DNA of 64,000 nucleotides. It comes from an uncultured Clostridia bacterium. Its GTDB lineage: Bacteria; Bacillota; Clostridia; Oscillospirales; QAKW01. The stretch is from positions 1,656-65,655 of the forward strand of contig CANQVN010000001.1 of assembly GCA_947627315.1 (NCBI GenBank), in the 5' to 3' direction. Below the pieces are notes generated by a model. The model was not told where the DNA came from. It worked only from the letters and a program-made list of their open reading frames with translations, and made no database searches. How positions within the stretch are numbered: position 1 is the stretch's first letter; every line of letters begins with the position of its first letter. Positions 2,468 through 42,007 of the stretch are shown piece after piece. Made by a program: the position numbers and the translations under genes.

Positions 2468-3571
2468 ATGTCAAAATACAAATTACAGTTAAAACAAATC
2501 GTGGATTACCCGCGATGCCGAATTTACCGACAATTTATTCGGCAATTGATAGAAGATCGGAACATTCGTTTGGGCGGAAGTTCCGGTCTTTATTATTATA
2601 CTGTTTTATCCTGCTTTGCAAACTTCCGCACATCCCATAAACGCATCGACGGAATAAGTTATACGGTTTATCCCGGTGAATGGGTGTGCAGGATAAGCGA
2701 GGTATGCGAATGGTTTCGCGTAAGGTTCCACCATCAGGCTTTTTCGATACTAAACGATCTTGTGAAGCGCAAGCTGATCACATTTTCCCTGCTCGGTCAC
2801 GGCAACATCATAAAATATACAATATGCGACTGGAAAAAAGCAAACCGTGTCCTGGAGTATAATGCGCCATGTCAAAAGGACACGGGCTTTTTCTTTCTGC
2901 CCATATCAAAAGCAAATGAACTGGTCGGTTCGGGGCGATGCTCGGAAATGGACGTTCTGTTGGATATGTGGATCAATGCCGTGTATAACGACAGTCGGGT
3001 TTCCGCTTCCGAAGCCGGTCCCGTTGTGTATTTCAGAAACGGAACGGGCTGCCCGCTTACCTGTTATGCGGAACTGGCAAAAAGATGGGGCGTATCAAAA
3101 GCAACAGCCGGTCGCTATGTAAGACGGTTGGACGATATCGGATATATAACGCAGATCAGTTTTCCCGGTACTTACGGCAGTGCCATCTACCTTCAGAATT
3201 ACCTTTCCACCATGTTTCAGATTTCCGATGTAATGATAGATAAGGAGGAAGTGGCGATGATGCTGGATATCCATATAAGCACGCCGGACGAAAACGATCA
3301 AAGCGTTTCAAAAGACGATCTCAGCGTATCAGAATCGCACATTGAAATGATACGGGAAAAAGTCGAAAAAATCCTTACCGCACAAGGCGTTTTGTGTGTT
3401 TCGTGTCCGAAAATCAAATATAAGTTATTTCCTTTATCCGATTGCGGTGAAGATATCTTATCAAGAGTAAATATCATACCCCCTATCCGCCGATATATAC
3501 TGCTTCTATCCTGTGACGGTAAAAACGAAATCATGCGGTTTTGTATCAAACTTACAGAGGAGGGATCGTAA
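2468..3571 (+). CDS. Hypothetical protein with an internal winged-helix/HTH-like segment (possible ICE regulator or initiator)
   Basis: 367-aa ORF with RBS AAGGAG. HTH-like YAELAKRWGVSKATAGRYVRRLDDIGYI. No family recognised. Confidence 0.45.
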   Translation: MSKYKLQLKQIVDYPRCRIYRQFIRQLIEDRNIRLGGSSGLYYYTVLSCFANFRTSHKRIDGISYTVYPGEWVCRISEVCEWFRVRFHHQAFSILNDLVKRKLITFSLLGHGNIIKYTICDWKKANRVLEYNAPCQKDTGFFFLPISKANELVGSGRCSEMDVLLDMWINAVYNDSRVSASEAGPVVYFRNGTGCPLTCYAELAKRWGVSKATAGRYVRRLDDIGYITQISFPGTYGSAIYLQNYLSTMFQISDVMIDKEEVAMMLDIHISTPDENDQSVSKDDLSVSESHIEMIREKVEKILTAQGVLCVSCPKIKYKLFPLSDCGEDILSRVNIIPPIRRYILLLSCDGKNEIMRFCIKLTEEGS

Positions 3572-4101
3572 TGTCAAAACAGGAACTGATCAATAATCCC
3601 GTCTACCACGATACGCTTACGCTTCTGAAAAAATACAGAGACGTTGTGTGGAGCGTCGAGCTGTCCGTTCAGCGTGTGCGCAGAAAATTTCAAATCGAGT
3701 ATGGCACGTCCATAGAGGATTTTCTCGATTCGATATACCTGGCGGGCATTGATTTTGAAGAGAGCGACATTGCCGAACACGCGCAAAGCATCGAGCGAAG
3801 TTATAAGATGCTTCGGCTTGTCGAGTCCTCCGTTAATCTGCTCCGCGAAAAGCATAAAAACGGAGAGACGTATTACTGGATACTTTATTACAGTTTTCTG
3901 TCGCCACGGCAGTACCGCAATGCCGATGAGATCATAGAGCAGCTACGCCCGCATATCCAAGATATCAGTTACCGTACCTACTACAGAAAACGCCGCGAAG
4001 CTATAGAGGCTTTCTCCTCAATCTTGTGGGGCTATTCCTCCCGCGACAGCTTAAATCTTTTAGAGCGGTTTTTCCCGAATGACGAAAAAGACGGGAACTG
4101 A
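3571..4101 (+). CDS. ArpU/DUF1492-like (sigma region-4-like) putative transcription regulator
   Basis: The ATG overlaps the upstream stop (TAATG). C-terminal pattern YWILYYSFLSPRQY...ISYRTYYRKRREAIEAFSSILWG is typical of that family. Confidence 0.4.
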   Translation: MSKQELINNPVYHDTLTLLKKYRDVVWSVELSVQRVRRKFQIEYGTSIEDFLDSIYLAGIDFEESDIAEHAQSIERSYKMLRLVESSVNLLREKHKNGETYYWILYYSFLSPRQYRNADEIIEQLRPHIQDISYRTYYRKRREAIEAFSSILWGYSSRDSLNLLERFFPNDEKDGN

Positions 4102-4246
4102 CATAAAATTGGCACGGTATTGCTATTGCGGCGTAAATGAGGGCGTGATAGAATGGGTATGCTCAAAACTATGTCACAAGTTCAAAGCACCATTTTCGGA
4201 TGGTGTTTTTTATATTGCTCAAAAGAGGTTAAGGAGGAACAATTAC

Positions 4247-4624
4247 TTGAAAAACAAAAACACTGCCGTAAAACGAAAAAGCGACCGCCATATGGATTGG
4301 GGGCGCATCCTTTTCACACTATTTGTGATGACGTGCCTGTTTTCCGTGATGGCTTTCAGAACCTTTGCCGCGCCTACGGTGTGGGATAAAGCGACCGAGA
4401 TAATGAAGGACGTTTATAACCAGGTGCTTGCAATATCCACCATCGCGGCAATCGTCACAGCATCGATAGCGTTGCTTTTAATGAATTTTTCAAAGTCGGG
4501 CCGTACCGTTGACGAGTCGCGCGCGTGGTTGAAAAGAATTATTATCACCTGGGCTATTCTGAACGGGCTCGGTTTTATTATGGCGTATATCACTCCGTTC
4601 TTTTCGGGAGGAAAATGGGGTTGA
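4247..4624 (+). CDS. VirB2/TrbC-like small membrane protein (putative T4SS pilin-like subunit)
   Basis: TTG start 10 nt after AAGGAGG. Signal-peptide-like N-terminus (...FSVMAFRTFAAP) and two further hydrophobic helices. Located directly upstream of the VirB6-like gene. Confidence 0.45.
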   Translation: MKNKNTAVKRKSDRHMDWGRILFTLFVMTCLFSVMAFRTFAAPTVWDKATEIMKDVYNQVLAISTIAAIVTASIALLLMNFSKSGRTVDESRAWLKRIIITWAILNGLGFIMAYITPFFSGGKWG

Positions 4625-4646
4625 CGAAAGGATGTGATCGTGCCGT

Positions 4647-5357
4647 ATGGGCATTTTAGACGGGATTGTTCAATGGATCGCTGAGCAGGTCATGAACGCG
4701 CTGGATCTGATCAGCACATCGGTTTTGGGCGCGCTGGGGTGCAACATGGATACTTTCCTGCGTTATTTCCCCGCCGCCGAAACCATGTATAACATATTTG
4801 TTGCTCTGGCAATCGGCTTGATATTGCTCAATTGGATATGGCAGCTGTTCAAAAACTACGGGTTGTCTGCCGGCGTGGAAGCGGAAGATCCGGTGAAACT
4901 GTCATTGCGCTCGATTCTCTTTATTCTGCTTGCCTACTTTTCGGATGATATTGTAAATATTATTTTGAAGATCGGCGGCACACCGTATAAATGGATCTTG
5001 AACTTCGAACTGCCGCCTTTGAATTTTTCGGATTTCAACAGCGTCCTGCTTACGATTTTGGGAGTGTGCGCAAACGGCGCAGTTGCCATTATTGCGCTAA
5101 TACTGATCCTTATTTTAGCGTGGAATTATATAAAGCTGTTATTTGAAGCGGCAGAGAGATATGTTCTGCTTGGCGTTCTGGTATACACCGCTCCGGTAGC
5201 CTTCGCTACGGGAGCATCCCAAACGACGGGCAATATATTCAAGAGTTGGTGCAGGATGTTCGCCGGGCAGATCTTTCTGCTGATTATGAATGCTTGGTGC
5301 CTGCGATTATTCACCTCAATGGTCGGAACATTTCTTTCAAATCCATTGTCATTGTAA
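4647..5357 (+). CDS. VirB6/TrbL-like polytopic membrane protein (CD0415/CD1112-like)
   Basis: 236 aa with multiple TM helices, positioned within the T4SS gene block. Confidence 0.55.
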   Translation: MGILDGIVQWIAEQVMNALDLISTSVLGALGCNMDTFLRYFPAAETMYNIFVALAIGLILLNWIWQLFKNYGLSAGVEAEDPVKLSLRSILFILLAYFSDDIVNIILKIGGTPYKWILNFELPPLNFSDFNSVLLTILGVCANGAVAIIALILILILAWNYIKLLFEAAERYVLLGVLVYTAPVAFATGASQTTGNIFKSWCRMFAGQIFLLIMNAWCLRLFTSMVGTFLSNPLSL

Positions 5358-5367
5358 AGGGGAAAAT

Positions 5368-6294
5368 ATGAAAAAAAGAACAAAAGCGTTAATTCTAGCG
5401 GCGGTCGTTGCGACAGCCTTGTGTCTTCTCTCCGTTTCGGCTTTTGCTTTGACGGAAAGCGAAGTGCAGCGGCAGGTCGATGCAGCGGGTCGTGAATCGG
5501 TGACCGGGAATATATTCATTTGGTTTCTGTGCGCCGTTGCATTTTTAAAAGTATCTCAAAAAATAGACAGTTTTTTATCGTCGCTCGGCATCAATGTCGG
5601 TCATACGGGCGGCTCGATGTTGGCGGAAGCAATGATCGCCATGCGCGGTGTCGGTATGGCTAAAGGTATGATGGGCGGAAACGGCGGTTATTCGGGACAT
5701 TCTGCGGGAGGGTCGGTTTCCTCGTCTGACGGAGCGGGCTTTATGAGCGGAGGGCTTGCCGGAGTCGTAAGCAGAAAATTCACAAACGACGCCGTAAAAT
5801 CGGCGACAAACGGCGGCGGAGGAGGAATAGGCGGAGCCGCGTTTTCCGCGTCCGTCAGCAAGGGCGGCGGATTTGCCAATCGTGTTATCGGCGATGTGGC
5901 AACGGGAGATATATCCAAAAAAGGCACGATCAGCGGCGAGGGAGCGTCTGATGCGCTGATGTCCTATCTCGGCTATACGGCACTCGGAAGCGATACGGAG
6001 GATGTTCCCTCGTTCAGCAATGTCGAGATAGGCGGCGGGCGGATAACCGCAACGGAGGTGACGCCCACCAATCCGAACGGTATTGAAACGGCAATGTATC
6101 ACGCGGAAAAATATGCCGCGCCCGACGGGAACTATACGACGGTAACGACCGCGGACGGATCTTCCTGGTATAAACAATATGCGGTCGATACGGTAGAACG
6201 CACTCCATATTCCGCGCCGGACGGCGAAGTGGCATATCATGAAAAAATCGTAAAGAAGCTACCCAAATCCCCGCCGCGAAAGGATAAACTGTAA
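5368..6294 (+). CDS. Gly-rich secreted/membrane T4SS-associated protein
   Basis: Internal ATG after GGGGAAAAT. Signal peptide MKKRTKALILAAVVATALCLLSVSAFA, one TM helix, and Gly-rich low-complexity sequence. Confidence 0.5.
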   Translation: MKKRTKALILAAVVATALCLLSVSAFALTESEVQRQVDAAGRESVTGNIFIWFLCAVAFLKVSQKIDSFLSSLGINVGHTGGSMLAEAMIAMRGVGMAKGMMGGNGGYSGHSAGGSVSSSDGAGFMSGGLAGVVSRKFTNDAVKSATNGGGGGIGGAAFSASVSKGGGFANRVIGDVATGDISKKGTISGEGASDALMSYLGYTALGSDTEDVPSFSNVEIGGGRITATEVTPTNPNGIETAMYHAEKYAAPDGNYTTVTTADGSSWYKQYAVDTVERTPYSAPDGEVAYHEKIVKKLPKSPPRKDKL

Positions 6295-33687: not shown

Positions 33688-36600
33688 GTGAAATATAAAG
33701 TTTACGATACGCCCGTACCGCAAAATCAGCGGGAGGAGGTCAATAAAAAACTCCTGCATCTGATAGACGCCTGCCGATATGGCGAAAGTGAAGTAAGTGC
33801 GGCGGACGTTTACAACCGCTATACCGGTCACGGCGGGCTTCACGATTTGAACAGAAAAGATTTTGAAAATTACGCGGCTTATGGCAATGCCAAAAAAGAG
33901 ATAGAAAACGGACAGTTTTTTACGCCGCCTCGCCTTTGTAAACTTGTTGCGGATTGTCTGATGCCGACCGAACAGGCGCAAATAGCCGATCTGACTTGCG
34001 GCGCAGGCGGATTTTTCAATTTCTTTCCGGTTGAGAGCAATTTGTACGGCTGTGAAATTGACGACGATGCGTATCGGGTGGCAAAATTTCTTTATCCGGA
34101 TGCGAATTTGGAAAAAGCGGATATTCGCGAATATAGTCCGAGCGTTCGATTTGACTATATCGTGGGAAATCCGCCGTACAATCTGAAGTGGACGACTCAC
34201 GACGGCAATACGGAAGTGTCGCAGAACTATTACTGTTATAAATCCGCAGGGCTGCTCAAGCCAAACGGCATATTGGCGGTTATTCTTCCGCTTTCGTTTC
34301 TTTCCGACAGCTTTTCGGACGGAGGACAAATAAGAGAAATGGAAAAGCGATTTCATTTTCTCGGTCAGGTATCCCTTCCGAAAAATTTATTTTCGGCTCT
34401 CGGCGTTTGCTCTTTTGGCACCAAACTTCAATTTTGGCAGCGAAAAAAGAATCCGTCGCCCGGCAGTTACCATACGGCGATGGATCTTTCGCTTGACGAT
34501 GATTTTGACGGCGCGGAAGCGGCAAAACGGATAACCGAAACCCTGCTTTCCGACGCCCTGGATCTGATGCGGCGCGACCGTGTCGCGGGCATCCTTGAAA
34601 TGGCTAAGGAAAAAGAGTTGTCCGAGGATTTTCGGTATCAGGTCAGAAAGCGGCTGTATCAAATCAGTTGTCATCCGAGGCTTAAAAACAGTTATGCAAG
34701 CTGCTGTGAGTACCTGTTTCGCTTTTGCACGCAGAAACAGCCGGAGGGCATGCCCTTTGAAGAGTGGCGGAAAAGACGAATTACCGAAGCAAAAGTGCTG
34801 GCATATATGAACAGGGTCTTGTCGTCGCAAAACGACAAACCGCCCTGCGATAAAATCTCTCTTGTGAAGCGGGACTATGATCTTGTCTACAAAGGTTACA
34901 GTGCAAAAACGCGGAAAATTTTGACGGGAGGTATGAAAGAGCCGATGCCGATTTATGAACTCGCCTCCTCGGACGGAGAATTTTATAACGGCTACGAGCG
35001 GCTGATCCGTAAAAAGCGGGATGCGTACATACGTCAAAACAGACGGTTTAGCGATATGCGGGAAGATCCCACGATTGCTGAATGGCTCGCGAATTTCAGT
35101 CTGTGGGATGCGGAAAACGAGGAAGTTATCCGCTTAAACGATATGCAGCGGCACGACATCAATCTGATGCTTCAAAAGCGATACGGGCTTTTGCAATGGG
35201 AGCAAGGGAGCGGAAAAACGCTTGCCGGAATTGCCGTAGGCAAATACCGGATGGAGCGTGAAAATATCCGGTATACCTGGGTCGTTTCGACCGCCATTTC
35301 CATTCGCAATAACTGGGATATGGTCTTGAAAAATTACAAACAGCCCTATGTGTTTGTAAAAAAGCAGCGCGATCTTGAAAAGATACGCAGCGGAGATTTT
35401 GTCTTGATTACGCTGAACGCATTGTCAAAGTACAAAAAGTTTATTAAACGGTGGATCCGCATTCACAACCGAAAAATACAACTGATTTTCGATGAGAGCG
35501 ACGAGATGTCAAATCCGAACAGCATTCGGGCAAAGGCCGCGCTGGATTGCTTCAGAAAATGCAAAGCCAAACTCTTGACGACCGGCACGAGCACAAGAAA
35601 TAATATCTCGGAATTTGCGCCGCAGTTGGAGTTACTCTATAACAATTCGGTCAATATGATATCCTGGTGTCGGTTCGTTTACCACTACGATAAGAGGTCG
35701 GATTACCTGGACGGAGTGCAGAACGCATATTTCGGCAAACCGATCCCGGCGTACAAAAAGGGCTACTCTTTGTTCTCGGCTTCACATCTGCCCGAAAAAA
35801 TCACGGTGTTTGGCGCAAAGCAGCGAACGCAGGATATTTACAATGCGGAACTGCTGGACGAAATACTCGGAAAGACCGTTATAACGCGCAGTTTTGAAGA
35901 GATCGTCGGCAGGGATATCCGCCGTATTCATCAGCTTCCCGTATCGTTTGCGCCCGCCGAACGCGCGGTGTATCAGATGGCGATGGAGGAATTTTATAAA
36001 ATGCGGGACAACTATTTTGCTTCTACCGGAAATTCGAGAAAAGATTCCATGATGAAACTGATGCAGCAGATCACGCTGTTGCTGAAGATCAGCGCCGCTC
36101 CCGACACGGTCAAAGAATATAGCGGCGGCTTGCCGGTAAAAATCGGCAGGATCATTGAGATGTTAGGAGAATTTTCGGACGAGATTGTTACGATAGGCGT
36201 CCGACATAAAGCGGTGCTTGATGCTTATAAAGGCGCATTCGAGCAGGCGTATCCGAATCGCAAACTGTATGCCGTAACCGGTTCTTCCTATACATTCGCA
36301 CAGCGTCGTGCGCTCCAAAAAACTCTCAAAGAAAGCAAAAACGGCATTCTCCTTTGCACGCAGCAGAGCTTACCGTCCAGCGTGAACTTTGAATTTGTAA
36401 ACAAGGTGATCATTCCGGAGCTTCATTACAATAATGCAAAAATGAGCCAGTTCTATATGCGGTTTGTAAGGTACACGTCCACCGAATGGAAAGATATTTA
36501 TTTTATTACCTACGGCGGCAGTATTGAATCAAACCTGATGCAGATGGTACTGGCGAAGGAAAAAATAAACCTGTTTATGAAAGGTCAGGATAAAAACCTT

Positions 36601-37361: not shown

Positions 37362-37406
37362 CCTCCAAATTCTGATTTTTGTCGAAACAAAAACAGAATC
37401 CGGAGG
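37362..37406 (-). promoter_or_regulatory. RBS-sequestering stem-loop / attenuator in front of the orf7-like gene
   Basis: Minus strand: CCTCCGGATTCTGTTTTTGT TTCG ACAAAAATCAGAATTTGGAGG, then CTTTTATG. The 3' arm contains the GGAGG Shine-Dalgarno sequence. Confidence 0.5.
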
Positions 37407-37612
37407 CGCACGCGGACGCAATAGGTATAAAAAACCAAAACTCTTGAATGGATTAGGTTCAAGAGTGATTCTTGTTATTTTACGGGATTGGCATCGCGAA
37501 TGAGTTGATCGATTTTGCCTGCATAAAGTAGTCCAACATAATCCCCGCCTTTGTTAATGAAATTCAGGCATATATCTCGGATCACAGACAACAAAATATT
37601 GGATAAATGGAT

Positions 37613-37646
37613 AAATAGACGATGGCGCACCTGCCATCGTCTATTT
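37613..37646 (-). terminator. Hairpin at the 3' end of the XRE gene
   Basis: AAATAGACGATGGC / GCCATCGTCTATTT 14-bp stem overlapping the stop codon. Only a weak T-run follows. Confidence 0.45.
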
Positions 37647-37926
37647 ATCTGCTTTTTATTATCATGTCGGGCAGCGTAGACGCTCTGAGCAAATCAGCCG
37701 GATCGACATTTAATGCGTCGGCAATATTGAACAGCACGTCGAGCGAAAAGCCGTAAGCCATGTTGGGCGCTTCGATGTTGCTGATAAGAGAACGGCTCAC
37801 TCCGGCGTTGGCCGCAAGTTTTTCCTGCGTTAATCCGCGCACTTTGCGAAGCGTGGAGATAGCTATTCCCAGTTGAACGAATCTATCTCTGTTTTTATAA
37901 CCTATCTCTTTACCCATAGCATCCAC
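37645..37926 (-). CDS. XRE-family HTH transcriptional regulator (start 37926 GTG or 37917 ATG)
   Basis: LRKVRGLTQEKLAANAGVSRSLISNIE is a classic HTH_3 pattern. Confidence 0.75.
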   Translation of the reverse strand: MDAMGKEIGYKNRDRFVQLGIAISTLRKVRGLTQEKLAANAGVSRSLISNIEAPNMAYGFSLDVLFNIADALNVDPADLLRASTLPDMIIKSR

Positions 37927-37995
37927 ACTTTCTTTGTTATTTCATTTTAATTATAGTATGAAATGCCTTTTCTTTCAGTACGCAACAGTAAGCGA

Positions 37996-38024
37996 TTGAC
38001 TTTATTAGTCAGCAATAGTATAAT
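37996..38024 (+). promoter_or_regulatory. Near-consensus sigma-A-type promoter divergent from the XRE gene, pointing at the island/integrase
   Basis: TTGACT-N17-TATAAT. Confidence 0.6.
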
Positions 38025-38152
38025 GTTATAGGCATATAAGTTTTTAATTGCTTAGGCAACTGTGTACGGAGGCTGTAATTTGGTAAGCAGTAATATACCG
38101 TGTAGAAAAACAAAAAACAGACGCCAAAAGACATCTGTTAATTTAATGTGTT

Positions 38153-38178
38153 TTTTCGTAAAGTATGTCACTCAACGA
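38153..38178 (+). repeat. Left copy of the perfect 26-bp inverted repeat bracketing the island integrase
   Basis: TTTTCGTAAAGTATGTCACTCAACGA. The exact reverse complement occurs at 39589-39614. Confidence 0.9.
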
Positions 38179-38200
38179 AGCAAATTCTTTATAAAACCCA

Positions 38201-38228
38201 TATAATTATACACGTATAATTATACACG
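38201..38228 (+). repeat. Perfect 14-nt tandem direct repeat upstream of the integrase (candidate arm-type or operator sites)
   Basis: TATAATTATACACG x2 (38201-38214 and 38215-38228). Confidence 0.8.
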
Positions 38229-38390
38229 ATGTCGCCGTACTTGTCAATGTGTCAGCAAATAATATCGAAAAAGATAAATTTTTGCGGTTTTGAGATATCA
38301 CAATAAAGTTTTGCTACACATGGACAACCTGTTTTTCGGCCATTTGCCGTCAACATCGCCGTCATCAATTAAAAAGTTGGAGGAAAATTT

Positions 38391-39521
38391 ATGCCAAAGA
38401 CAGGAGAAAACATTTATAAACGCAAAGACGGTCGATGGGAGGGCAGATACATTCGCTACTATGATGAAAATGGAGTCGGTAAATACGGATATGTATACGC
38501 TAAAACTTATAGAGAGGTTAAGATAAAACTTGCAGAAAAATCTGCAATTATTTCATCTCGACAGATATTACTTTCAAATAGTCATGTTACCTACGACGAA
38601 ATTTTAACCGCATGGTTACAGTCGTCAAGAATTAACATAAAAGAATCAACCTACGCGAGATATACGCATATAGTTGATAGTCATATCCGACCATCGTTGG
38701 GTAAGTATCAACTTTGCAAGATCAGCACGCAGTTAATTGAAGGGTATATAGAAAGCAAATTGCACAATGGAAGATTGGATAAGAACGGTCCTCTATCTGC
38801 AAAAACCGTAACAGATATGCTCTCTATAATCAAAAGTTCTTTTGAATATGCCAGATACAATAATCTTCCGGTTATTTGTAATTTAAGCAAGTTGTCGATT
38901 AAAAGAAAAGATAAAGAGATGCGTGTACTCCGACAGGATGAGCAAAATTTGTTGGTGCGTGTGCTGCTTGATAAAATTGATTTATATAAATTCGGTGTTC
39001 TTTTATCTCTTTATACCGGTATTAGAATTGGAGAACTATGTGCATTACGGTGGGGCAATTTGTGTTTAGACGACCGTATTCTTAGAGTCAGAGAGACGAT
39101 GCAGCGCATCCGGGATACAAACATGGAAACAAATACTAAGACCAAGATCATTATTACAGAGCCAAAGAGTCAGTGCTCTATCCGTGATATTCCATTGCCG
39201 GAATGTATCGTTGTGATTGCACGACAATTTCGCGCATCAGATAAAGATTTTATTCTTACCGGAGATCGCGTAAAATTTGTTGAACCTCGTACAATGCAAA
39301 ACCGTTTTAGGCATTACGTCATGGAATGCGGAATCGACCAAGCAAATTTTCATTCTCTCAGACATACATTTGCAACACGATGTGTTGAACTTGGTTTCGA
39401 ATTGAAGAGTTTGAGCGAAATACTCGGTCATTCAAATGTAAATATTACTCTTAATAAATATGTCCACTCATCATTTGAGTTGAAACACAGCAACATGAAT
39501 AAACTTACATTACCACTTTAG
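38391..39521 (+). CDS. int: Tyrosine site-specific integrase (Tn916-Int/phage-integrase family) of the nested island
   Basis: RBS GGAGGA. N-terminal arm-binding pattern GENIYKRKDGRWEGRY. Catalytic-region motifs LYTGIRIGELCALRW, HSLRHTFATR and LGHSNVNITLNKYVH. Confidence 0.85.
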   Translation: MPKTGENIYKRKDGRWEGRYIRYYDENGVGKYGYVYAKTYREVKIKLAEKSAIISSRQILLSNSHVTYDEILTAWLQSSRINIKESTYARYTHIVDSHIRPSLGKYQLCKISTQLIEGYIESKLHNGRLDKNGPLSAKTVTDMLSIIKSSFEYARYNNLPVICNLSKLSIKRKDKEMRVLRQDEQNLLVRVLLDKIDLYKFGVLLSLYTGIRIGELCALRWGNLCLDDRILRVRETMQRIRDTNMETNTKTKIIITEPKSQCSIRDIPLPECIVVIARQFRASDKDFILTGDRVKFVEPRTMQNRFRHYVMECGIDQANFHSLRHTFATRCVELGFELKSLSEILGHSNVNITLNKYVHSSFELKHSNMNKLTLPL

Positions 39522-39544
39522 CGCCGTCAAAATAATAGTCAAAT

Positions 39545-39586
39545 AAGCGTCCGAAAGTCACGTTATAACTGTGATTTCGGGCGCTT
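39545..39586 (+). terminator. Strong hairpin after the island integrase (weak T-run)
   Basis: AAGCG-CCGAAA-TCAC ... GTGA-TTTCGG-CGCTT. It ends 2 nt before the right inverted repeat. Confidence 0.45.
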
Positions 39587-39588
39587 TG

Positions 39589-39614
39589 TCGTTGAGTGAC
39601 ATACTTTACGAAAA
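39589..39614 (-). repeat. Right copy of the perfect 26-bp inverted repeat
   Basis: TCGTTGAGTGACATACTTTACGAAAA is the reverse complement of 38153-38178. Confidence 0.9.
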
Positions 39615-39620
39615 TATAAA
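39592..39620 (+). promoter_or_regulatory. Candidate promoter whose -35 box lies inside the right inverted repeat
   Basis: TTGAGT-N17-TATAAA, 16 nt upstream of ATG 39636. Confidence 0.45.
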
Positions 39621-39635
39621 ATAGCGGGTGTGAAT

Positions 39636-39983
39636 ATGAGCGATTACCAAGTAAATAAGTTGCTTGACATTGATAAAGATCAGTTAATTGCACGATTAAC
39701 TTCTGATTTGTCTGCGCTGTGAGCAAAACTTGGAATATCACAGTATGCACTTGCCAATCTAATTGGAATATCAAGGCAAACCTACAATTCTATTGAAACC
39801 GGCAAGAAAAAGATGCCGTGGAATGTCTTTTTGGCCTTGATTTTGTTATTTGGCTTTAATGAAAAAACTTCGTATCTTGTAGAGGCATCTGGTGCATTTT
39901 CTCCTTCCCTAAAAAAGGTTTTAGGAATCAATGAACGGGTTGAGAAAGCACTTGACGATATATTGGTTTCAAATACAATATAA
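39636..39983 (+). pseudogene. XRE-family HTH regulator interrupted by an in-frame TGA at 39720-39722
   Basis: MSDYQVNKLLDIDKDQLIARLTSDLSAL*AKLGISQYALANLIGISRQTYNSIETGKKKMPWNVFLALILLFGFNEKT.... The HTH lies downstream of the stop, with no start codon after it. Confidence 0.6.
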
Positions 39984-40312
39984 AAATTTGATGGCAAAAT
40001 AATAGTCAACCAATTCATTAAAAATTCAACAACAAAAATATTTAAATTTTGGGGAGTAAATTTAGAAGTAAATTATAGAGTAGAGTTGATCAAATATAAA
40101 GGCGACCAATAATACCTTTATAGGGTGACGTCAAAGCGAGGATATCAATACATTATCCTCTTTTAGATATTCCAAACCTTCATATATGTACTCGAATTAA
40201 ACTTTTACGAAAAATTAGCCTTGAGTTTCCAGTATCTATGCCTGAGAGAACTATGGTGCAAGTTCTAACCAGATTTCCTAAAAAGTAACAATAATTCAGG
40301 AGGTTTCATCGT

Positions 40313-42007
40313 ATGAGCGATATGGATATACTCTCTGATGGCAATTTTGATATCGAATCTGACTCAAGTCTTGACAGCGACTTGGATTTGTATATGGATT
40401 CCGATATAGAATCTCTGGATTCGTTTGATGATGTTGATGCTTCGTTTTTGGGGGACGGCGATTCAAATATGGATCTCGATTCTACAGGCTCGGACTTTTT
40501 CAATGAGTCATTTGATGAAGTTGGTCTGCAAGCAGATATAGATGAAGCATCTGATTCTTCAGAAGATCTTTTGAGTGATTTGGATGAAGTTCCCGATACG
40601 GAGAACTTCGAATCTATTTCGGAAGTTGATATTGATACATCTGACGATGAAATTGAAATTCTTGAAATGGATGATGGTGAACTAATCGATGAAGTAGGAA
40701 CAGCATTTGAAGCCGACGATGAAACAGAAGAAGTTTCGGGTGAACAAATTGACTTACTTGATACAAATGATTATTTAAGCGATGTGGCTGATGATATACA
40801 AGAAGAAGCCGGTTTAATTTCAGACGAAACGGAAACCTTGTCTGAAAACATCAGTGGCGGGTTGGATTTAGAAGACGGACTTGAATCATTATCTCTTGAA
40901 GATTTAACAGATCTCGAGTATGAAAATGGTAATGAAGAACTGGAAGAACTTGTCTCGCCGGCGGAAGAGGAAATGACCGAAACTCCAGAGGATGCTTTGG
41001 ATGCCATTCAAGCGGAGCGGGAAAGACTTACTGAAATAAAAGAAGCACTCGCAGAGATGCAAAATTCCGAAATTAAAGATGCAGATGAGTATGAAGAAGA
41101 TTCTCCGATGGTACGCACTCGTGAGATAACATCTGAGATACTTGAGAGCAGAGAACGCGACACCGAGGAAGTTCTTGATAATTATCGAGATAACCTTCGC
41201 GGATACGGCGTCAATGAAGCGCAGATTGAAGAATTTGTCGAACAAGAACGCGAAAAGATCAACGCCGAATATGAGAGTTTAGATCGCGGAGACGAATATC
41301 CACAGATGTATGAAACGCCGAATGATTGGGAGAAAATTTCAGCATCCTTAATGGGTCAAGAAACTCAAGATGAGATACACTATGAATCCTCTCAGTTTTC
41401 TGAAATAGAAAATCAGGCTTTAGAAGAATTAGAAGAGGAGAATCAGGAGTTAGAGATCAATTATGATGAAATTTATGAGGCTATTCAACAAGATTCCCTT
41501 GAACAAGGTTTTGAGAATATCCAAGTAGATGCAGACCCGGAGAGATTAAATCAATCATTAGAAAACTTCAATGAATCGACATGGGAGGATCTTACTCTCG
41601 ATGAACAAAAAGACTCGATGGCATCTTTGGCTGATTATGTAGTCGATGTGATCGGATTTGAAAATCCACCAAAAATTGAGTACTACAACAACGAACGTAA
41701 AGGTGACTTTGGCGGATACGACTCAACTGCCAATACTTTGTATATCAATGAATATATGTTATACAATTCCGATGAGGCTGCCGATACAATTGCTCACGAA
41801 CTATGGCATGCCCATCAACATGAATGTGCTGAAAATCCTCAAAGTGCTCTCGATTATCAGTATCAGTACAATTTTGAAAATTATATACCGCCTGAATTGG
41901 GGCAAGAAGAGTATGAATCCCAGTTAGTTGAAGCAGAAGCCAGAGCTTTTGCGGCTCAGTTCAAAGATAGATTATCTCATATTAATAGAGGTCATGACGA
42001 TGGATAA
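40313..42007 (+). CDS. Hyper-acidic protein with a C-terminal HExxH zincin-like domain
   Basis: RBS AGGAGG. The first ~230 aa have almost no Lys/Arg and are D/E/S-rich. C-terminus: TLYINEYMLYNSDEAADTIAHELWHAHQHE...EAEARAFA. Confidence 0.55.
   Translation: MSDMDILSDGNFDIESDSSLDSDLDLYMDSDIESLDSFDDVDASFLGDGDSNMDLDSTGSDFFNESFDEVGLQADIDEASDSSEDLLSDLDEVPDTENFESISEVDIDTSDDEIEILEMDDGELIDEVGTAFEADDETEEVSGEQIDLLDTNDYLSDVADDIQEEAGLISDETETLSENISGGLDLEDGLESLSLEDLTDLEYENGNEELEELVSPAEEEMTETPEDALDAIQAERERLTEIKEALAEMQNSEIKDADEYEEDSPMVRTREITSEILESRERDTEEVLDNYRDNLRGYGVNEAQIEEFVEQEREKINAEYESLDRGDEYPQMYETPNDWEKISASLMGQETQDEIHYESSQFSEIENQALEELEEENQELEINYDEIYEAIQQDSLEQGFENIQVDADPERLNQSLENFNESTWEDLTLDEQKDSMASLADYVVDVIGFENPPKIEYYNNERKGDFGGYDSTANTLYINEYMLYNSDEAADTIAHELWHAHQHECAENPQSALDYQYQYNFENYIPPELGQEEYESQLVEAEARAFAAQFKDRLSHINRGHDDG

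Follow-up and report, generated by a model that had tools for sequence, protein, structure and literature searches.

In the H segment of the Salmonella Hin system, which underlies flagellar phase variation, the recombinase gene and an outward promoter both lie inside an invertible segment of about 1 kb with 26-bp inverted sites, and flipping connects or disconnects the promoter and an adjacent operon that includes the regulator gene fljA. Hin is the cited example of a recombinase encoded within its own invertible segment (PMC5903667). We analysed a 64,000-nucleotide stretch of DNA from an uncultured Clostridia bacterium (contig CANQVN010000001.1, positions 1,656 to 65,655; hereafter the window), in which a tyrosine integrase gene, int, is enclosed by inverted 26-nt repeats in a cassette of 1.46 kb. 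With a probability of roughly 0.68, we read this segment as a Hin-like promoter-inversion switch that is run by a lambda/Tn1549-type integrase from inside its own invertible segment. Its main use is most likely that of an on/off switch for a neighbouring regulator gene and the accessory genes behind it, among them an erythromycin-resistance gene in some relatives.

The likeness to Hin lies in the arrangement, with the recombinase and a predicted outward promoter both inside a segment bounded by 26-bp inverted sites. Hin, a serine invertase, depends on an enhancer and on Fis, whereas int encodes a three-domain tyrosine integrase accompanied by candidate arm-type repeats, and the OFF side of the window cassette, unlike that of Hin, has a dedicated terminator. 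Membership in the serine invertases (Hin, Gin, Cin, Pin) was rejected, as only tyrosine-integrase domains were found in Pfam; the locus is Hin-like by its working only.

Tyrosine recombinases invert promoter segments between short inverted repeats, with ON and OFF states, in E. coli fimS (FimB/FimE) and in the C. difficile RecV systems (cwpV, flagellar), as is proposed here. Those recombinases, however, are short, have no arm-binding domain and are encoded outside an element of 150-300 bp, in contrast to a 376-amino-acid (aa) lambda/Tn1549-type integrase inside a 1.4-kb element. The integrases of Tn1549, Tn916 and lambda are the closest solved relatives of Int and share with it a three-domain layout and direct repeats as potential arm sites, but they integrate and excise via direct attachment (att) sites, whereas here two inverted core sites bracket only the integrase gene.

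Standard inverton surveys, if they are limited to small intergenic invertons, may have overlooked the present family. Invertible promoters with resistance genes on integrative and conjugative elements (IP-ARG) were reported from Bacteroidales exclusively; their invertons are small, and the invertase is encoded upstream and lies outside them (PMC8748976). Our locus resembles them in placing a predicted invertible promoter on a conjugative element, in a variable cargo that can hold erm, and in that most natural copies are OFF (PMC8748976); it differs in its Clostridia hosts, in a promoter of sigma-70 rather than Bacteroides type, and in having the integrase inside. In hCom2, 33 small Clostridia invertons (group 139) were linked to an adjacent tyrosine 'invertase group 35', and their switching was shown in culture; two examples have repeats of 14-26 bp and invertons of about 230-260 bp (PMC11892184). 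Compared by description only, group 139 is similar in its Clostridia hosts, its repeats of up to 26 bp, its tyrosine integrase and an interior of 205 bp, close to the median distance of 203 nt between left repeat and int start in our family, and it differs in its small inverton with the integrase outside; its members may be relatives with an external integrase. We found no published description of the present integrase/inverton family, in a literature search of incomplete coverage that yielded general inverton surveys.

Repeats and orientations across the integrase family

We compared 84 loci whose integrases share 43-100% protein identity, including 80 species-representative genomes of Lachnospiraceae, Oscillospiraceae and their relatives. 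In 73 of them the integrase gene lies between the arms of an inverted pair whose positions are conserved, the medians being 203 nt from one arm to the start codon and 75 nt from the stop codon to the other; the pair has a median length of 25 nt and is perfect in 56 cases. Across the family, 67 distinct arm sequences follow one plan, a dyad of two half-sites of about 10 nt with the consensus TTCGTAGAGT-n5-ACTCTACGAA. The centre of the arm is asymmetric and of odd length; it varies across loci but is identical, in inverted form, within each locus, and an inverted match between the arms beats a direct match in 73 of 73 loci. The check for the same repeats in related islands that the earlier note had proposed was thereby run, and it returned them with concerted change. 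Most of the 11 loci without a pair are contigs that end close to the integrase gene. A search for a small upstream inverton in four repeat-less loci (L061, L065, L073 and L080) gave nothing convincing, the last offering only a degenerate 74% pair.

Judged by its sequence, the anatomy of the arm is that of a tyrosine-recombinase core site with its crossover region. Two core sites of this enzyme family in inverted orientation lead to inversion, not excision, and inversion is therefore what the arrangement predicts. In the window, the sites and the gene between them are as follows.

38153-38178, no strand: left inverted repeat, candidate core recombination site; a perfect repeat with a dyad, and breakpoints fall in the homologous repeats
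39589-39614, no strand: right inverted repeat, the same candidate core site inverted; a perfect repeat, and breakpoints fall in the homologous repeats
38391-39521, plus strand: int, tyrosine integrase of 376 aa (Pfam Phage_int_SAM_3 and Phage_integrase, PF00589, 2e-25)

The left arm, TTTTCGTAAAGTATGTCACTCAACGA, recurs as its exact reverse complement in the right one, 1410 nt away, and int is the one long open reading frame (ORF) in the interval. No third copy of the 26-mer was present in the 64 kb with up to 3 mismatches allowed, nor was any further core-like site found in the window beyond the two arms. Two matches to the 26-mer occurred in 0 of 100 dinucleotide-preserving shuffles of the window, and the earlier note's perfect pair, which it held to be beyond chance, stands on both counts. 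It had called the 26-mer not palindromic; around the asymmetric centre (atgtc, 38165-38169), the half-sites TTCGTAAAGT (38155-38164) and ACTCAACGAA (38170-38179) form a weak dyad in which 8 of 10 positions pair.

Close relatives carry the cassette in both orientations. The 1468-bp cassette at 3193-4660 of locus L029 matches 4771-6238 of locus L031 in the forward direction at 99.9% identity, while both flanks match in reverse (99.2-99.9% identity), and the junctions lie inside the 26-nt repeats. The same pattern of a flipped cassette with breakpoints in the repeats distinguishes L016 from L018, which are about 87% identical. Flanking gene families change sides as well. Genes for a small helix-turn-helix (HTH) protein, here called the partner, lie on the int-3' side of the cassette in 21 loci and at the other end in 4 (L018, L022, L031, L053). 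The family of XRE regulators on the flank opposite the partner (16 loci) is split 14:2, with L022 and L053 as the mirrored pair; a TetR-like flank family is split 5:2, and several smaller clusters are split too.

Of the features of an inverton with an invertible promoter, the family shows inverted repeats, a recombinase encoded between them and, among close genomes, both orientations. The earlier note's proposal of an invertible cassette with its recombinase between inverted sites is supported by this comparison of genomes: the repeats are conserved, close relatives differ in orientation and the breakpoints fall in the repeats. The alternatives it had listed, a rearrangement scar or purely paired operators, find no support. 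The encoded Int is probably itself the invertase.

Among Logan short contigs, 4 of 5, from four different sequencing runs, hold the cassette and nothing more, their ends being 0-5 nt beyond the repeats. Such ends are what a de Bruijn graph gives when a sample contains sequences that part at the edge of the repeat; the contigs are consistent with mixed orientations but are no proof of them. A metagenome scan with the repeat of Agathobacter rectalis found the ON junction in 0 of 5 loci, too few to count junction types within the species.

A conserved candidate promoter, directed outward, between unequal flanks

What the inversion would move appears to be a promoter that was absent from the earlier note. 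This promoter, P_out, and the features around it are given here.

38219-38247, minus strand: predicted outward promoter P_out (-35 box TTGACA at 38247-38242, 17-nt spacer, -10 box TATAAT at 38224-38219; 12/12 consensus positions)
38201-38228, no strand: 14-nt tandem duplication (TATAATTATACACG twice), overlapping the -10 box of P_out
38106-38139, minus strand: outward terminator-like hairpin with T-run on the OFF-side flank, 13 nt outside the left repeat; it would stop transcripts leaving the cassette
39547-39588, plus strand: terminator-like hairpin of int (hairpin proper 39547-39584; -22.4 kcal/mol), extending up to the right repeat
37645-37926, minus strand: XRE-family regulator gene of the OFF-side flank (HTH_3), reading away from the cassette
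39636-39983, plus strand: partner gene for a small HTH protein (HTH_3 in the family), starting 21 nt outside the right repeat
37996-38024, plus strand: external promoter-like site TTGACT-17-TATAAT (11/12), facing the cassette; not conserved
39592-39620, plus strand: weak promoter-like site TTGAGT-17-TATAAA, straddling the outer edge of the right repeat; not conserved

P_out is directed leftward, out through the left repeat. Of 73 homologous loci, 50 have a match of 11-12/12 whose -10 box is separated from the repeat by 25-40 nt, and the columns of the promoter are conserved in the alignment of family loci; on the plus strand of the same interval, which served as control, the best match is only 8-9/12. 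The 14-nt tandem duplication is a window-specific insertion, represented by a single copy in the other loci (alignment against 27 of them). The earlier note had allowed the interval only three things, this tandem repeat, int and the terminal hairpin. All three are indeed present, but so are the minus-strand consensus promoter and two pairs of CCGTCA-type repeats, considered below. Scanning 37400-40400 against Rfam gave no match to an RNA family.

The two flanks of the cassette are not alike. On the XRE side, 14 of 16 loci have a terminator that faces outward and begins 9-20 nt beyond the repeat, whereas 0 of 25 have one on the partner side. Directly 3' of int, most loci have a strong hairpin and T-run in the same position, which would shield the neighbouring gene from int transcription. 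On the partner side, members of the partner family (about 95-185 aa) adjoin the cassette in 25 loci. Their ribosome-binding site (RBS) starts 6-48 nt outside the repeat, which leaves no room for a promoter of their own in most loci, and their stop codon is often abutted or overlapped by the next gene. The 3' end of the XRE gene in the window runs into a hairpin at 37608-37651, with a 20-bp stem and perfect 17-nt arms (37610-37626 and 37633-37649), that is probably a terminator.

These parts suggest the following mechanism. Each 26-nt arm would act as a full core site, with two half-sites of about 10 nt around an asymmetric crossover centre of 5-7 nt, and the encoded integrase would recombine the two inverted sites so that everything between them flips. 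The near-consensus sigma-70 promoter P_out, at the cassette end away from the int 3' end, is predicted to be active and to fire out through the adjacent repeat. In the OFF orientation, found in the window, it would point toward the XRE-side flank and be stopped by the terminator that stands 13 nt beyond the repeat; transcription of int would end at a terminator of its own on the inner side of the right repeat, leaving the partner HTH gene untranscribed. Inversion would redirect P_out from the terminator to the HTH gene, and in this ON orientation P_out would read the partner gene and the accessory genes behind it. Expression of partner and cargo would in this way follow orientation.

Orientation states were called from the flank terminator, with P_out pointing toward it taken as OFF-like and P_out pointing toward the gene-bearing flank as ON-like. 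By this rule, 38 loci, including the window, are OFF-like and 8 are ON-like; one more has terminators on both sides. The ON-like loci do not cluster in the integrase tree, and for each of them there is a relative in the OFF-like state, which implies at least six independent flips.

An alternative is that inversion mainly controls int itself. An external promoter would then yield int mRNA or, after a flip, antisense RNA, so that each pulse of recombinase would limit itself, with P_out secondary. The 11/12 site at 37996-38024 does face the cassette and may drive int in its present orientation, and a conserved promoter for int was not found within the cassette alignment. The earlier note, which had pointed to this external site, was correct as to its sequence; a comparable site, however, is found in only 4 of 17 loci, and no conserved inward promoter was detected on the XRE flank. 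What is conserved instead are P_out, the flank terminator and the promoter-less partner. An integrase locked OFF, moreover, could not flip back. Control of int as the main purpose is therefore unlikely. The second promoter of the earlier note, half inside the right repeat and facing outward, fares similarly: the sequence is there, but the flanks of 25 loci hold no conserved promoter embedded in the repeat, and in most of them the neighbour's RBS is too close to the repeat to accommodate one.

The integrase and its host element

Int belongs to the tyrosine recombinase superfamily by the R-K-H-R-H/W-Y pattern of its sequence: R212, K259, H321, R324, H347 and Y357 are invariant in 36 family sequences, the catalytic set having been chosen among invariant residues from family motifs rather than from an alignment to solved structures. 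By sequence, its closest solved relative is Tn1549 Int (6EMZ family, E=1e-16). An AlphaFold model (mean pLDDT 73) places a three-stranded sheet and a helix at the N-terminus (residues 8-57), followed by core-binding and catalytic domains. Its top Foldseek matches are 6EN2 (Tn1549 Int) and full-length 1Z1B (lambda Int), the lambda alignment covering the entire model. Residues 1-65 alone had no Pfam or PDB sequence match, so that the assignment of this part relies on the fold, which suggests a candidate arm-binding-like domain.

Two pairs of direct repeats near the ends of int could be its targets.

38347-38364, plus strand: direct repeats CCGTCA-N6-CCGTCA just 5' of the int RBS, candidate arm-type or operator sites
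39524-39541, plus strand: second direct-repeat pair CCGTCA-N6-TAGTCA, located at the stop codon of int and oriented like the 5' pair

The 5' pair shows conserved columns (gCCGTCA...cGTCA) in 28 loci, and the pair at the int stop is present in most of 32 loci. The pattern CCGTCA-N6-YMGTCA has 3 matches in the window against 0 expected from shuffles. The third match (34494-34511, minus strand) lies inside a methylase/SNF2 ORF 3.6 kb from the cassette and may be due to chance or be a distant binding site. The two pairs are candidate arm-type sites but could equally be operators. Taken with the lambda-Int-like N-terminal fold, they suggest that the integrase may bridge arm-type and core sites to build the inversion synapse. 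A 15-mer, CAAAATAATAGTCAA, occurs at 39528-39542 and again at 39995-40009, right after the stop codons of int and of the partner gene; an arm-like motif conserved after the partner stop was not found in the family, and the 15-mer repeat is window-specific.

An enzyme of lambda/Tn1549 type with an arm-binding-like N-terminus might primarily integrate and excise the surrounding mobile element, the paired sites being by-products or regulatory and the inversions functionless side reactions. The window is indeed a conjugative element, with a VirB4-like ATPase, a coupling protein, and methylase/SNF2, PcfJ, YodL and RecD2-like proteins on both sides of the cassette, and no integrase other than int was found among the genes of its 64 kb. 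Yet in 73 loci the two sites face each other in inverted orientation at a distance of 1.4 kb, and the window has no other core-like site. In one element common to five genera (more than 97% identity over 11 kb), conservation continues past either end of the cassette for more than 5 kb, and the A. rectalis locus, which carries an FHA/PP2C/kinase set as cargo, lies beside housekeeping genes and has no transfer genes. The conserved layout of promoter and terminators, finally, has no role in integration. An integrase devoted to its host element is on these grounds a quite improbable reading. The repeats were likewise rejected as attL and attR of an integrative element, as the sites are inverted in 73/73 loci and 1.4 kb apart, the five-genera element extends beyond them and the window contains no other core-like site.

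Very unlikely, too, is a small mobile element resembling an insertion sequence (IS) that has inserted between the XRE and HTH genes, int being its tyrosine transposase and the 26-bp arms its terminal inverted repeats. Size and terminal repeats are IS-like and cassette-only contigs occur. A human-gut contig, L097 (13634-13714), shares the partner flank and 25-nt repeat of the A. rectalis locus L001 but has a different cassette interior, suggesting that whole cassettes are exchangeable at the repeats. The window nevertheless holds a single copy without target-site duplication, the same two flank gene families recur across 45-100% integrase identity, and the flank terminator together with the abutting RBS amounts to a co-adapted design. 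An insertion sequence or transposon was rejected as an identity for the same single copy in the window, the lack of an end duplication and the conserved flank families. That the two arms serve as a pair of operators, bound by a dimeric HTH repressor (XRE or partner) or by the integrase to regulate itself, without DNA rearrangement, is most improbable, for although the near-palindromic arms suit binding by HTH dimers and HTH genes lie on both flanks, near-identical elements occur in both orientations with breakpoints in the repeats, and a symmetric operator needs neither asymmetric centres that are inverted in 73 of 73 loci nor their co-variation per locus.

Several points weigh against the promoter-switch reading that we prefer. 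Inversion was seen between genomes and not within a clone; that the window strain still switches is what we infer from its relatives. All 10 A. rectalis contigs examined have one orientation, so that switching may be rare or strongly biased, and the cassette-only contigs could stem from strains that share the cassette and differ in their flanks. Promoters and terminators were called from consensus and pattern matches only, 22 loci have no terminator callable by our simple rule, and int has no conserved promoter of its own in the cassette. The integrase may have further roles, such as integrating its host element. In the window, the partner gene itself has an in-frame TGA (39720-39722) as its codon 29, a position occupied by Arg in homologs (LSAL*AKLG versus LPALRG...). 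Read with the standard code, the other long ORFs of the window are uninterrupted, which makes this look like a nonsense mutation or pseudogene rather than recoding, and the output of this copy may be defunct even if the cassette still flips.

Cargo and meaning for gut Clostridia

To the left of the window cassette lie the XRE regulator, a sigma-70 region-4 protein and an HTH_16 protein. On the partner side, a run of co-directional genes begins with candidate cargo.

40313-42007, plus strand: first accessory gene downstream of the partner, at the head of the co-directional run

The 330-nt gap before this gene includes a promoter-like site at 39952-39979. Its product, 564 aa long, is extremely acidic and rich in D, E and S; a C-terminal region containing HExxH has a weak likeness to the DUF6782 metallopeptidases (E=0.0025, below cutoff).

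The genes on the ON side differ from locus to locus and include zinc-ribbon/DZR, TetR, a camelysin-like peptidase with a signal peptidase, an IrrE-like peptidase, radical SAM and Double-GTPase proteins. In the five-genera element, they include Erm(B) (565.7 bits; NCBIfam cutoff 525), encoded 35 nt after the partner stop and without a leader peptide. The leaderless erm(B) is located at 6617-7354 of L043 and is found also in L049 and L050; L044 and L048 carry a variant, in which the sequence after the partner is what we take to be the classical erm(B) leader/promoter region. All 5 of 5 copies of the element are OFF-like. Strains that carry it are Butyricicoccus pullicaecorum DSM 23266, Negativibacillus massiliensis Marseille-P3213, Eisenbergiella porci WCA-389-WT-23B, Brotaphodocola catenula CLA-AA-H274 and Clostridium sp. 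AF27-2AA.

The integrase family is very large in gut Clostridia. Its A. rectalis member, 71% identical to Int, is on 871 contigs; no exact match to the window integrase was found in the assembly index, and a plasmid collection contained only distant integrases (at most 40% identity). The best plasmid match, L102 (R. albus 7 pRUMAL02, 136358-143419), has three tyrosine and three serine recombinase genes in a cluster, without the repeat-flanked architecture.

Promoter inversion is a classic mechanism, and surveys of gut bacteria mostly describe Bacteroidales and small invertons with the invertase outside. In the present case it appears in Clostridia and in a portable form, with recombinase, promoter, sites and insulators in one 1.4-kb unit. 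Dozens of species-level genomes have this unit, and variable cargo follows it. Tentatively, and with some doubt, we propose that this is a previously undescribed and very widespread self-contained phase-variation module of gut Clostridia, in which an integrase of lambda/Tn1549 type now serves as invertase and shares its own 1.4-kb inverton with a strong promoter, and which gates a regulator and an exchangeable accessory-gene hot spot on chromosomes and conjugative elements, including the leaderless erm(B) of five genera. If this is true, accessory traits of Clostridial mobile elements, namely defence-like genes, secreted and envelope proteins and, in the one five-genera element, erm(B), would be expressed only in a sub-population and could be selected ON. 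It would also provide a natural arm-binding integrase acting as an invertase, of relevance to recombinase mechanism and to the engineering of switches for Gram-positive anaerobes. The detection, host cost and persistence of resistance and other cargo would all be affected.

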